Shown here: piece by piece, positions 7,045-49,723 of the stretch | Numbering within the stretch: position 1 is the first letter of the stretch | Layout: every line of letters begins with the position of its first letter | NCBI RefSeq assembly: GCF_003019035.1 | Contig: NZ_CP027447.1 | Strand: one strand, 5' to 3' | Origin: Escherichia coli | GTDB taxonomy: Bacteria; Pseudomonadota; Gammaproteobacteria; Enterobacterales; Enterobacteriaceae | DNA length: 64,000 nt | Program-made: the position numbers and the translations under genes | The notes under the pieces: model-generated | Databases searched by the model: none | Seen by the model: the letters and a program-made list of their open reading frames with translations, nothing else | What the model was told of the DNA's origin: nothing

Positions 7045-9744
7045 TCAACCAACCTTGCCAATCAATCCCTCCGTAGCCGAATACCCACAACTTTCGTCAT
7101 CGGTGACTAAAATCACGTTTGCCATCTCCGGATCATGCCGCTGTTCAACGCACCACTGCCTGAACGCATCCCCTTCCAGTAAAGAAAACTCATCCCGATG
7201 TTTTTTCCACCAGCTTCGGCGCACTCTGACAACGCTCATTTCCCATGCGTGTGCACCTGTGGCATAAGGCTTCACCACACCGTCAATACAGGTAGCCAGC
7301 CACAGGGAAACAGACTCTTCAGCCAGACGTGTCGACAGTTTTTCCGGGAGGTAATCGTTGATATTGGCGGCATAGCCGGGCCTGAAGTTCAGTACAAACT
7401 TTTTAGCCATTGCGCGATCGCAGTAATATTTGCCCACTTGCTCCTGCTCGCTGCGGGCAAACCCTTCCGGCATTACTACGTCCTCACCGTAGACTGATTC
7501 AATCAGAAGCCGGGCTGAGTGTGGCATCTGAATAGCACCTTGCTCACGCAGCACACGCTGCGTCAGCCAGATTCGCCCATGATCGGGATAGACAAATGCA
7601 CTGTTACGCATGGCACTGCCAAACCATTCGTCACCCGGAGAGTCGTCCCAGACGGGGGCCAGAATCAGCAATTCAGGAGGGTGACGCTCGTCTTTACCGT
7701 CACGCTTTAACTGGCCATTCATATCGCGGATATGTCGCTGTAATCGCCCTGCTCGCTGGATCAGTAAATCAACAGGGGCAAAGTCGGAAATCATTTCGTC
7801 CAGGTCGCAGTCAACGCTCTGCTCCAGGACTTGAGTACAAATGAGGACTTTTCCGGCACGCTGTGAACAGTCTTCTTTACCAAAGCGTGCCAGCGTCTCC
7901 GTTTCAATTCGCTGGCGATCGCTAAAAGCAAAGCGGCTATGAAAAAGTGAAAGGCTGGAAGCAGGAATGACGCCGCGGGCAAGTAACTGACGATGAACCT
8001 GGATGGCGTCATCGACAGAATTTCGGATCCAGGCGATACATTTCCCCTGACTTACCGCCGATTCGATACGCGCAATACACTCTTGTTCGCTATGAAGCCA
8101 ACCCACACTCACGCTGCGCTCAACGTCTTTGCGCGTCGCTACCCGGTGTGAATGCACATCGGATTTCGTAACGTGCGTCAGCCAGGGGTAATCATCCTTT
8201 TCCAGGAACGGAGCTTCTTGCTGGCCCTCTATACCACGCGCAAAGGCAGCAACGAGTTTGTCGCGCTGCTGTTGAGATAACGTGGCAGAAAGCAAAATGA
8301 CGCTGTTTCCGCCACGCGCCTGCCGCTCGATCAGCCCTTCAAGAATGCATGACATGTAAGCGTCACAGGCATGGATCTCATCAGCCAGCAGGATTTTGTT
8401 ACTCAGTCCCAGAAGCCGCAGATTATTATGTTTGAACGGCATCACAGCCATCATCGCCTGATCCAGCGTGCCGACGCCAATTTCAGCCAGTAGCGCCTTC
8501 TTGTTACTGTCGGCAAACCAGGCCGCACATCCCTGACTGCACGTTTGTTCATCCGGTTCTTCTGACCCGACTAAATCACCGGACCAGAGTGATTCATTAA
8601 AGCGGTCCATTAATGTTCGGGCACTGTGTGCCAGCACCAGGCTGGGGCGGGACTCTGGCGAATAGAAAGCAAGCCAGGTTTTGACCAGTCGATCGTACAT
8701 GGCATTGGCCGTTGCCATTGTTGGCAGGCCAAAAAACAAACCCTGCGCTTTCCCCGCAGCCATCAACCTGTGCGCCAGGATAAGCGCCGCTTCTGTTTTA
8801 CCTGCGCCGGTTACATCCTCCAGAATAAATAACTGTGGTCCCGGCTGGCTGATATCCAGATCCAGCACCTTTTGCTGTAGCGGTGTCGGATTCTCAATAA
8901 AAGGAAACAGCGTATTAATTCCGGTGAAAGGCGCGCTTTCTGCTTTTGGAGGAAAGACGGTTAAGGCGTTTTGAGCCTGAACTAAAGTTTTCTGCCAGTA
9001 ATCTTCAATATCCATTGTCTGTGCGACGCGTGGAAAATATCGCGTTGACGATCCCGTCCAGTCTGCAAGTACGACGGTTGCAGAGATATACCAGGAAAGT
9101 TGTTTTATAAGTTCAACGCCCTCGTCATCATCCCAGAATGTGGGGATCTCTATGAGCGGAAACAGTACCTTGATTGCAAGGAGAAAATCTCGTGCGGCAC
9201 CTTTGTCTTCAGGCAGAAAATTATCCAGTTCATCCATACGCTCAGGGGGTCGACCATGATGCCCGGTAGTCATGGGCATCCACATCTCCATCACCCGTTT
9301 AAGTTTGCGCGGAGAGAGTGAAGATGAAGGAAGCAACTCCTGACATTCACTTAAATAATGGTTCCACAACCAGTAGCCCAGCGTTGAATGAGAGATCTTT
9401 TCGTAATTCTTTCTTGCGCCTTCCGGAACCTTGAGTTGTGGGTGCAGGTAAAGTTGCTGAAAAGAGCGGGCAAATTTTCCAATATCGTGCCAGCACAGCA
9501 GCCAGGCGAAAAATTGTGCTGCCAGCTCCGTGTCAGCGAAACCTAATTGACGAAAATAGTCAGCCAGTCCGAAGCAATTGCTTTTAACCATTAAATAGCC
9601 CATCGCGGCTACATCCAGCGAATGCCAGCAAAGAAGGTGATAGTCGTCACCACCCTCTTTCTCGCCGCGTCGGGTTTTTCCCCAGAAATCAAAAAAAGTC
9701 ACAATATTTTTATCCTTCAGTAAACTTAAAGGATATTTACGCAT
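7045..9744 (-). CDS. cas3: Cas3 HD nuclease / DExH helicase
   Basis: 899-aa ORF with N-terminal HD region (HSLDVAAMGY...WHDIGK), Walker A DVTGAGKTEAAL and DEIHA box. Confidence 0.95.
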   Translation of the reverse strand: MRKYPLSLLKDKNIVTFFDFWGKTRRGEKEGGDDYHLLCWHSLDVAAMGYLMVKSNCFGLADYFRQLGFADTELAAQFFAWLLCWHDIGKFARSFQQLYLHPQLKVPEGARKNYEKISHSTLGYWLWNHYLSECQELLPSSSLSPRKLKRVMEMWMPMTTGHHGRPPERMDELDNFLPEDKGAARDFLLAIKVLFPLIEIPTFWDDDEGVELIKQLSWYISATVVLADWTGSSTRYFPRVAQTMDIEDYWQKTLVQAQNALTVFPPKAESAPFTGINTLFPFIENPTPLQQKVLDLDISQPGPQLFILEDVTGAGKTEAALILAHRLMAAGKAQGLFFGLPTMATANAMYDRLVKTWLAFYSPESRPSLVLAHSARTLMDRFNESLWSGDLVGSEEPDEQTCSQGCAAWFADSNKKALLAEIGVGTLDQAMMAVMPFKHNNLRLLGLSNKILLADEIHACDAYMSCILEGLIERQARGGNSVILLSATLSQQQRDKLVAAFARGIEGQQEAPFLEKDDYPWLTHVTKSDVHSHRVATRKDVERSVSVGWLHSEQECIARIESAVSQGKCIAWIRNSVDDAIQVHRQLLARGVIPASSLSLFHSRFAFSDRQRIETETLARFGKEDCSQRAGKVLICTQVLEQSVDCDLDEMISDFAPVDLLIQRAGRLQRHIRDMNGQLKRDGKDERHPPELLILAPVWDDSPGDEWFGSAMRNSAFVYPDHGRIWLTQRVLREQGAIQMPHSARLLIESVYGEDVVMPEGFARSEQEQVGKYYCDRAMAKKFVLNFRPGYAANINDYLPEKLSTRLAEESVSLWLATCIDGVVKPYATGAHAWEMSVVRVRRSWWKKHRDEFSLLEGDAFRQWCVEQRHDPEMANVILVTDDESCGYSATEGLIGKVG

Positions 9745-9938
9745 ATATTAAAAATTATCTGTGATATATATCGTTCAATAAAATATTTACATTATGAATA
9801 ATCAAATAATTTTCATCCGTAATATATATGAATAATAAACATAGGCATAATATTCACATAAACAATATAAATTAAAAAAGGGTGCAGGAGACCAAACCAT
9901 CACAATTCAGTACGCGGGGTTTTACCCCCGCGTGGTGG

Positions 9939-10091
9939 CTACTTCTTCGATTCGTAAGCGAGAACCGCCTTAAACTCCATACCACGTTCTCTGATACTCA
10001 ACTCACACAACGAGTCGCCTACCATCAGCGTGAATCCCAGTACTGTAAAACACAGCACTATGATTGCCACAAGGGCATATTTTGTCAGCAT
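9939..10091 (-). CDS. Hok/Gef-family type I toxin (50 aa), not in ORF track because under 60 aa
   Basis: Hand translation of minus strand from ATG (complement of 10089-10091) to TAG (complement of 9939-9941): [50 protein letters not shown]. Hydrophobic N-terminus plus SLCE...AYES tail is the Hok signature; GGAGG 7 nt upstream. Confidence 0.78.
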
Positions 10092-10295
10092 GTCTTGCCT
10101 CCCTGCAAAGAAGAGACTAACATTCGAATTGTTTGGGTTCGAACGCTGGCCTCAGGTTGATAGAAATATCGCCTGGGGCTTTTGTCCATCTGGAACCTCG
10201 CGAATGCTTAACGCCAGACAGCCTCAAGCACCCAACGCCATTCTATACCTGTTAATTCTTCCAACGACGTTCACGTTTAAAATCAGGAATGCTGC

Positions 10296-10340
10296 TCGCA
10301 AAATAAAAACGCCCCCATCATTTCTGACAGAGGCGTTTAA
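10296..10340 (-). terminator. Putative terminator downstream of cysH
   Basis: Minus strand reads AAACGCC...GGCGTTTTTATTTT just after the cysH stop; the stem is short with a large loop, so this is tentative. Confidence 0.4.
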
Positions 10341-10355
10341 TTTATCCGGCAATAT

Positions 10356-11090
10356 TTACCCTTCGTGTAATCCACATTCCCTTTTTAAGCCAAAGAAACG
10401 CGTTTCTTCTTCCGCCATGCCGGGTTCCCATTTACGGGTTGTATGGGTATCGCCCACCGATAAATATCCTTCATCCCATAATGGGTGATATTTCAGGCCA
10501 TGTTTTTGCAGGTACTGATAAATAGTTCGGTTATCCCAGTCGATAATCGGCAACACTTTAAATACACCACGCTGGATAGCCAGCACCGGTAAATTAGCAC
10601 GGCTGCCGGATTGTTCACGGCGCAGGCCAGCAAACCAGGTTTGCGCATTCAGTTCTTTCAGCGCCCGGTTCATCGGTTCGACTTTGTTGATGTCATTGTA
10701 CTTTTCAATGCCTTCAACGCCCTGCTCCCACAGTTTGCCGTAGCGTGCTTCCTGCCAGGCGGCGCTTTCAGTAGCACGGTACACTTTCAGGTTGAGCTTG
10801 AGTTTATCCGTTAACTCGTCAATAAAGCGGTAGGTTTCCGGGAACAGATAACCGGTATCGGTGAGGATCACCGGAATATCCGGGTGAATCTGATTCACCA
10901 GATGCAGGCTCACCGCCGCCTGAATGCCGAAGCTGGAAGAAAGCACATATTCACCGGGCAGATTATCCAGCGCCCAGGCAACGCGGCCTTCAGCGTCCAG
11001 TTTTTCCAGTTCGGCGTTAGTTTCCGCCAGCGCCAGAATGCGATCTACCTTCGGCAGTTCGTTCAGGGCGTTTAGATCGAGTTTGGACAT
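10356..11090 (-). CDS. cysH: Phosphoadenosine phosphosulfate (PAPS) reductase
   Basis: Frame of ORF 10356-11243; conserved start [15 protein letters not shown] at 11090 gives 244 aa, matching CysH. Confidence 0.95.
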
Positions 11091-49363: not shown

Positions 49364-49723
49364 AATAAAAAAAGGGAGCACTGTATTCACAGTGCTCCCG
49401 GTTCGTTTCGCAGCATTCCAGCTACTTTTGTTGCTCCCTGCTCATCCTTGACAACTTTTCCTCTGGCCTTGCGGCCAATCGTTCATCCTGAACTATTGCT
49501 TCCTGCTCACACCACCCCGATGTGATACTTCATCCTGAAGTGTCCCTGGCCTTCCTGACCCACCGAATCATCCTGACCGGTTCTCATTCTCCATCCTGGA
49601 GGTGTCCTTTAACGCGTCCTGCGTCATCCTCTTCGCTTCATCCAGAAGCCTTTCCCTGAAACACCATCCTGGTGTGTCCTTCAGAAGTGTCATCATCCTG
49701 ATGTTCACTTCGTTGTCTGACTC
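49364..49723 (-). ncRNA. csrB: CsrB, CsrA-sequestering small RNA
   Basis: Minus strand begins GAGTCAGACAACGAAGTGAACATCAGGATGATGACAC... and carries many CAGGATG/AGGA loop motifs (seen as CATCCTG on the plus strand); ends in hairpin GGGAGCACTGTGAATACAGTGCTCCC plus T-run at 49364-49410. Confidence 0.92.

Follow-up and report, generated by a model that had tools for sequence, protein, structure and literature searches.

Results

A hok gene between cas3 and cysH

The window, a 64,000-nucleotide stretch of E. coli DNA, carries on its minus strand a small gene encoding a peptide of 50 amino acids (9939-10091, stop codon included). Its ATG is preceded by a GGAGG Shine-Dalgarno (SD) sequence at 10098-10102, at a distance of 6 nt (CAAGAC). 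An earlier note on this DNA, made from the letters alone, had pointed out both the open reading frame (ORF) and its GGAGG site, and both are present in the sequence. The interval was a 100% DNA match to E. coli SMS-3-5 (NC_010498.1), in which RefSeq annotates the coding sequence ECSMS35_RS14600 (WP_000956460.1), a "Hok/Gef family protein" located between cas3 and cysH. The description of the gene as unlisted was therefore right for the first ORF track, presumably on account of a length cut-off, but not for RefSeq.

The same note had read the peptide as a Hok/Gef-type toxin and proposed a Pfam alignment as a check. This alignment confirmed the reading: the HOK_GEF family (PF01848) matched the peptide over its full model (positions 1-42 of 42; i-E = 3.5e-11, 43.0 bits). 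When the peptide, hereafter HokX, was aligned with the HokA, HokB, HokC and HokE proteins of K-12, the residues C14, T16, L28, E30, E39 and A45 were invariant, and the marks of the Hok family were found, namely the N-terminal hydrophobic transmembrane stretch, the helix cysteine (Cys14), the LCE motif (SLCEL) and the A(Y/C)E tail (LAYES). Identity to the K-12 paralogues was 78% for HokE, 50% for HokA, 39% for HokC and 33% for HokB. The top NCBIfam matches of the peptide were HokA and Hok family models; however, neither curated cut-off was reached (57.7 vs 89 bits for NF007290, the HokA equivalog; 41 vs 73 bits for NF007279, the Hok family), so the peptide is not a HokA equivalog, and these two models cover the HokX/HokE branch poorly. 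At least 1,000 public contigs carry the exact protein under a Hok name; in some of the records it is mislabelled as HokE.

Among seven full-length copies, the coding sequence showed nine variable sites, eight of them synonymous and one non-synonymous (F15C). As 77% of the possible changes are non-synonymous, this distribution (P = 6e-5) implies that the peptide is under purifying selection, and its maintenance by selection argues against a dead relic.

The antisense RNA SokX and the putative promoters

In K-12 MG1655, the sole annotated feature of the cas3-cysH interval is the small RNA sokX (b4701). Its sequence (2887353-2887411) maps without mismatch to positions 10131-10189 on the plus strand of the window, which places a SokX antisense RNA of 59 nt within the range of about 10100-10250 where the earlier note expected a Sok-like RNA. 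The predicted fold of SokX (-23.8 kcal/mol, z = -3.3) comprises a short 5' stem and then a strong terminator hairpin, GGCCUCAGG..CCUGGGGCUUUUGU, followed by CUUUUGU. By sequence, this RNA has what is expected of a Sok: it is cis-encoded, it is complementary to the hok mRNA leader, and it has a terminator hairpin with a U-run and a putative promoter.

This putative Sok promoter (10095-10123, plus strand) consists of a -35 box TTGCCT (10095-10100), a 17-nt spacer and a -10 box TAACAT (10118-10123); SokX starts 8 nt past the latter. The -35 box shares bases with the hok SD on the opposite strand. It matches the consensus at 8 of 12 positions, and it is invariant in all 8 strains compared, K-12 included. 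On the minus strand, the putative -10 box of the hok mRNA, TAGAAT (10240-10245), was read by eye and is also invariant in 8 strains; no good -35 box was seen for it. A consensus promoter and terminator scan of positions 9700-10400, with a threshold of 9 matches, reported neither the hok nor the Sok promoter, and gave only a chance-level site inside hok and the cysH terminator (10338-10307). We infer both promoters by eye, as weak matches to the consensus.

The earlier note had suggested an alignment with the K-12 interval, in the belief that this was the hokX/sokX position, and had considered the gene intact here. The alignment located sokX at the homologous site of K-12, in agreement with the name used in the literature, and showed that the hok coding body is gone from that strain. 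K-12 and the window were identical over 10089-10233, which includes all of SokX, and 97.6% identical over 10089-10300, towards cysH. Homology broke off exactly at the hok ATG, with unrelated sequence beyond. Judged from this comparison, what remains in K-12 is the promoter, the leader and sokX, the coding body having been lost.

Leader, ends and predicted fold of the hok mRNA

The leader of the hok mRNA (10076-10233, minus strand) was recognized by the Rfam model RF01794 ("sok") with 111.1 bits against a gathering score of 59 (E = 4.5e-26), over the full model (1-157), and a scan of the whole window agreed. Despite its name, RF01794 fits the mRNA-sense leader rather than the Sok strand, and its naive use would therefore assign the antitoxin to the wrong strand. 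Other weak Rfam matches (ctRNA_p42d, PyrR, Spot 42 and others) were rejected as chance, as they fell on the cysH terminator or far under the gathering score. Leader positions 10092-10120 are invariant in 8 strains.

A full-length hokX mRNA of about 360 nt is predicted on the minus strand (9874-10233). Its 5' end was placed at 10233 because position 1 of RF01794 falls there and TAGAAT lies 6 nt upstream. The 3' end was placed at 9874 because a run of six U (9879-9874) occurs there and because, in strains with another neighbour, homology stops at 9873/9874, right after this run. No local terminator hairpin was found before the U-run of hokX. The minimum free energy (MFE) of the predicted mRNA was -130.7 kcal/mol (z = -3.9).

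In this fold a tac-like box at the 5' end, GGGUGCUUGAGGCU (10220-10233), pairs with an fbi-like box at the 3' end, GGUCUCCUGCACCC (9880-9893), which is complementary to the mRNA 5' end and abuts the U-run. Its 12 bp join 10220-10233 with 9880-9885 and 9888-9893. Of random 38-nt segments drawn from the window, 2.2% attain the energy of this duplex (-21.8 kcal/mol), which supports the pairing only jointly with position and conservation. The hokE and hokC leaders begin with the same or nearly the same 5' box, and GCACC(C) boxes occupy the same place as the 3' box in hokA, hokB and hokE. Cognate 5'/3' duplexes of hokX and hokE were 2-4 kcal/mol better than the cross combinations. Among E. coli hokX copies at least 94% identical, natural variation in the 3' box was limited to two one-sided changes, G-C to G-U and G-U to G-C, both of which keep the pairing. 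Together, these data lead us to propose, with moderate confidence, that the ends of the hokX mRNA may pair in the manner of the tac-fbi interaction reported for the hok mRNA of plasmid R1 (PMC9841398). When 9874-9910 (37 nt) was removed in silico, the 5' end of the mRNA was predicted to refold locally, a behaviour compatible with a processing-triggered switch such as that of R1.

The hairpin beyond the stop codon

Just 3' of hok, a G/C hairpin of the minus-strand transcript spans 9912-9933, with an 8-bp stem formed by 9912-9919 and 9926-9933 and a loop of 6 nt; on the plus strand it reads ACGCGGGG-TTTTAC-CCCCGCGT. The hairpin itself had been correctly located by the earlier note; its loop was given one C too short. 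An equivalent post-stop hairpin occurs in hokE, hokC, hokA and hokB. Sequence features indicate that this hairpin is not the end of the transcript, as it is followed by the conserved 3' box and the U-run (9893-9874). The tail past it amounts to 38 nt (9874-9911), and the hairpin is a probable stop point for 3' trimming.

The target consensus of IS186 is reportedly a G-run and a C-run separated by a short spacer. In K-12, IS186 occupies the equivalent hairpin of the hokE and hokC loci, and with the element found in hokX of BL21 there are three independent insertions into the same G-run/loop/C-run element. These repeated insertions fit the existence of an IS186 target consensus, as announced in the title of a report cited by PMC3045373.

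The 12-codon upstream ORF

Upstream of hok, the minus strand contains an ORF of 12 codons (10085-10123) with its ATG at 10123-10121 and its TGA at 10087-10085, the stop overlapping the hok start as ATGCTGA. The earlier note had described exactly this arrangement, and it is present in the sequence. Seven strains have this ORF in identical form; the O157 copies carry TAA in place of its TGA stop, by a base change synonymous in hok. In SMS-3-5 the same frame is open from an ATG at 10189, giving 34 codons (10189-10085). This longer ORF was considered as a mok equivalent and discarded: a stop occurs after 18 codons in five of the seven strain variants, which leaves the 12 codons as the conserved unit, and its 34-amino-acid product had no NCBIfam match.

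No SD sequence was found before the ATG at 10123. This codon lies 32 nt before hok and 8 nt outside the SokX-complementary stretch, and on the opposite strand its three bases form the end of the putative Sok -10 box, an overlap that could by itself account for its invariance. The conserved ORF ends on the hok start, but it lacks an SD and has its ATG on the putative Sok -10 box. A start codon is missing from hokX at the canonical mok position, 57-58 nt before the hok start. In R1, mok is an ORF of 70 codons that starts 58 nt before hok, and its translation is mandatory up to the hok initiation region and dispensable past it, so that later stops are harmless (PMC9841398). Since translation is needed only up to the initiation region, an ORF of 12 codons that reaches the hok start would be sufficient by the R1 rule.

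Reads have been reported over the minus-strand leader in EDL933, which carries an intact copy: 93 from RNA-seq and 28 from ribosome footprints, with a ribosomal coverage value of 0.63, above the threshold for candidate translation used in that study (PMC5331693). In K-12, a Ribo-seq signal at sokX has been ascribed to contamination by structured RNA (PMC7580957).

Distribution, decay and neighbourhood of the locus

Of 5,426 complete E. coli genomes, 5,425 contain the leader/sokX part. The coding part with the 3' UTR (9874-10088) occurs in 4,220, and in 4,215 of these it is at least 95% identical; that is, about 78% of the complete genomes have kept it and about 22% lack it. Decay was seen in three forms: K-12 has had its coding body deleted, BL21 has lost the 3' box to an IS186-family element that sits in the post-stop hairpin, and strain PSJ-42 carries an IS1 inside the gene.

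The end of the module lies about 130 bp from the start codon of cas3. In strains without cas genes the module is found unchanged between cysH and iap, with the same end base (9873/9874). It shares the orientation of cysH, to whose side it belongs, and towards cas3 its homology ends abruptly.

Discussion

We conclude with high confidence that positions 9874-10245 contain the chromosomal type I toxin-antitoxin module hokX/sokX, in a copy that appears complete. The locus name and its position between cysH and iap are those of previous reports, according to which 90% of uropathogenic strains have both hok and sokX beside cysH and K-12-like strains have sokX only (PMC7232551; PMC12736100). The module is thus already named, annotated and described, and represents nothing new in kind. 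What is mildly unusual is confined to the leader ORF of the HokX/HokE branch, which is short and relocated.

By analogy with plasmid R1, a weak promoter would give rise to a stable hokX mRNA of about 360 nt, closed by the tac-fbi pairing of its 5' and 3' ends and, in that state, neither translated nor bound by Sok. Slow exonucleolytic trimming would shorten the 3' end by about 38 nt (9874-9911), as far as the G/C hairpin, freeing the 5' end and letting the leader refold. The refolded mRNA would then either be bound by the short-lived SokX and destroyed or, once SokX runs out, be translated. Ribosomes on the 12-codon ORF would terminate at the hok start (AUGCUGA), and there open the hok initiation site or be handed over to it; the Hok peptide produced would enter the inner membrane and depolarise or kill the cell.

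How ribosomes reach hok in this scheme is debatable. From its sequence arrangement, mok-style coupling through the 12-codon ORF is plausible, and we weigh it against direct initiation at GGAGG at roughly even odds. According to the latter explanation, to which we give a little less than an even chance, hok would be translated from its own SD after activation of the mRNA, and the 12-codon ORF would be incidental, its ATG being kept as the complement of the Sok -10 box. The lack of an SD before the ATG at 10123 and the coincidence of this codon with the end of the putative Sok -10 hexamer favour such an explanation, as does the strong SD of hok itself, with GGAGG at a 6-nt spacing. Furthermore, in hokE the corresponding ATG is in frame with hok, so that no particular reading frame is conserved, and the mok starts of R1, hokB and hokC lie 57-58 nt upstream, inside the Sok target, where hokX has none. 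On the other hand, the ORF is identical in 7 strains and keeps its stop in the O157 copies (TGA to TAA). It also has the property that R1 requires, translation up to the hok initiation region (PMC9841398), and the in-frame arrangement of hokE and the stop-on-start arrangement of hokX would both bring ribosomes across the hok SD; ribosome footprints on the EDL933 leader point in the same direction (PMC5331693). Coupling could take a particular form in the HokX/HokE branch, which we put forward tentatively and with more doubt than conviction: a minimal, relocated mok, represented by the 12-codon ORF in hokX and by an in-frame extension of 12 residues in hokE, with an SD-less start 8 nt outside the Sok duplex, within the complement of the Sok -10 box, and in hokX with a stop that overlaps the hok start as AUGCUGA. 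If this were true, SokX could not mask the start of the leader ORF by direct pairing, as occurs in R1, and would act through RNase III-dependent decay or through steric hindrance just upstream. We found no description of a relocated mok in the literature searched, which left out Pedersen & Gerdes 1999 and Steif & Meyer 2012.

Whether the module has a present function at all can also be questioned, as it might be an intact-looking but silent relic similar to the hok loci of K-12. All five of these, hokA to hokE, have been reported as non-functional (PMC7232551), and for this reason a chromosomal hok locus is not automatically active. The repeated destruction of hokX in other strains (the K-12 deletion, IS186 in BL21 and IS1 in PSJ-42) and the absence of the coding part from about 22% of the complete genomes are in line with such a view. 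Nevertheless, we consider it unlikely, given the purifying selection on the peptide, the presence and conservation of every regulatory element, the coding part retained at 95% identity or more in 78% of the genomes, and the transcription of the leader in EDL933 (PMC5331693). Far less probable is that the module is tied to the adjacent type I-E CRISPR-Cas operon, for example by stabilising the cas genes as an addiction module or by regulating the cas3 promoter. The earlier note had drawn attention to this adjacency, which is real and is the only point in favour of such a tie. It has no evident meaning: cas-less strains hold the same module between cysH and iap, down to the same end base, and K-12 has cas3 and no hok, so the proximity is incidental; the orientation with cysH and the sharp homology boundary on the cas3 side also speak against it. 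We therefore dismissed a functional link on this comparative evidence.

As a discovery, a locus that is named, annotated in RefSeq and widespread carries little weight. The coordinate map of an intact copy, with the predicted mRNA ends, the tac- and fbi-like boxes, SokX and its putative promoter, the leader ORF and the probable trimming hairpin, can serve as a reference for the annotation of the many Sok RNAs that lack one. Moreover, whereas the locus is damaged in K-12 and B, strains like SMS-3-5 provide an intact chromosomal hok for functional tests, among them tests of how leader translation is coupled to hok in the HokX/HokE branch.

Compared with other copies of the same locus, that of SMS-3-5 is free of the K-12 defect, in which everything 3' of the hok ATG has been lost, and of the IS186-family element that interrupts the post-stop hairpin in E. 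coli B and BL21; the BL21 gene is annotated as the same protein, WP_000956460.1. The closest paralogue is hokE/sokE of E. coli, as indicated by the 78% protein identity. The leader architecture is alike: the 5' end of Sok is located 8 nt upstream of a conserved upstream ATG, and each mRNA has a hairpin past the stop codon and a 3' box that is complementary to its own 5' end. Unlike hokX, hokE carries a 4-nt indel that puts the upstream ATG in frame and adds the 12 residues to the N-terminus, has a distinct terminator hairpin after the 3' box, where the hokX box abuts the U-run, and is located between ybdK and entD, with tandem duplicates in some strains.

With hok/sok/mok of R1, the module shares the Hok/Gef peptide, an antisense Sok directed against the leader, the RF01794 leader fold, the predicted pairing of the 5' and 3' ends and an upstream ORF that overlaps the hok start (PMC9841398). 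The R1 mok has its own SD and lies inside the Sok target, whereas the hokX ORF has 12 codons, no SD and a position outside it; the R1 system serves plasmid maintenance, whereas the hokX copy is chromosomal. Plasmid Hok proteins are only about 40-43% identical to HokX, which leads us to regard HokX and HokE as a chromosomal branch. In a search of plasmids for intermediate relatives in which the conservation of the leader ORF might be judged, nearly all Hok proteins were less than 60% identical, and the few closer ones include chromosomes filed as plasmids.

The hokB/sokB and hokC/sokC systems of K-12 are likewise chromosomal, with annotated mok and sok genes, and hokB resembles hokX in having a GGCACCCC box followed directly by a U-run. 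They differ in their low protein identity to HokX (33-39%) and in the starts of mokB and mokC, which, unlike that of the hokX ORF, fall within the Sok region, 57-58 nt before hok. Of the two, mokC is an in-frame extension and mokB an out-of-frame overlap.

Results and discussion

Insertions of IS186-family elements were observed at three separate hok loci: K-12 carries them at hokE and hokC, and BL21 at hokX. The point of insertion is equivalent at all three, falling in the hairpin formed after the hok stop codon by a G-run, a loop and a C-run, and at each locus the element severs the 3' box from hok. The hairpin or insertion sites lie at 9912-9933 in the window and at about 1981-2010, 1000-1010 and 330-352 in the comparison loci L010, L003 and L007, respectively. 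The post-stop hairpin of hok loci looks like a target hot spot for IS186.

In the BL21(DE3) assembly NZ_CP081489.1 (locus L004, 2255-2530) what remains of IS186 ahead of hokX is one end of some 55 nt, and this remnant is fused to an apparent truncated tRNA gene beside tolB-pal-cpoB. In BL21 (TaKaRa), by contrast, the complete IS and iap are both present; the arrangement in NZ_CP081489.1 is a rearrangement at the IS, specific to the strain or to the assembly.

On the cas3 side of the module (cas3, 7045-9744, minus strand, encodes 899 aa in the window), the stretch just upstream of cas3, beyond the module end at 9873/9874, is absent from K-12 and from strains without cas genes. On the other side, a strong terminator-like hairpin (10307-10338, minus strand; 14 pairs followed by a U-run) lies directly 3' of cysH, between this gene and the hok promoter region, and accounts for weak Rfam matches to ctRNA_p42d, PyrR and Spot 42.

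Although Rfam labels its family RF01794 'sok antitoxin', the match to it (10076-10233, minus strand, 157 nt) lies on the mRNA-sense strand of hok, and the strand opposite this match carries the annotated SokX RNA (59 nt, 10131-10189, plus strand). The EDL933 entry 'sok_15/sokX' is a minus-strand feature of 152 nt (PMC5331693), a pointer which suggests that automatic annotation from Rfam would place the antitoxin on the wrong strand. Elsewhere in the window, the CsrB RNA gene was matched at full length (RF00018, 383 bits; 49364-49723, minus strand).

Tandem copies of hokE, spaced about 500 bp from one repeat to the next, were found in O157:H7 TX 376-2 and O25:H4 CU568-3 (L016 381-1117 and L017 381-1119), both with intact hokE 3' ends. 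Antisense to the hokE leader, RefSeq lists a 'hypothetical protein'; it carries a frameshift in one strain and is probably a spurious annotation.

At the presumed 3' end of the hokX mRNA (9874-9893, minus strand) the U6 run lacks a local terminator hairpin on its 5' side, and the sole helix abutting this run is the long-range 5'/3' helix of the mRNA. K-12 hokB shares this 3'-end layout, whereas hokE differs in having a separate terminator hairpin.
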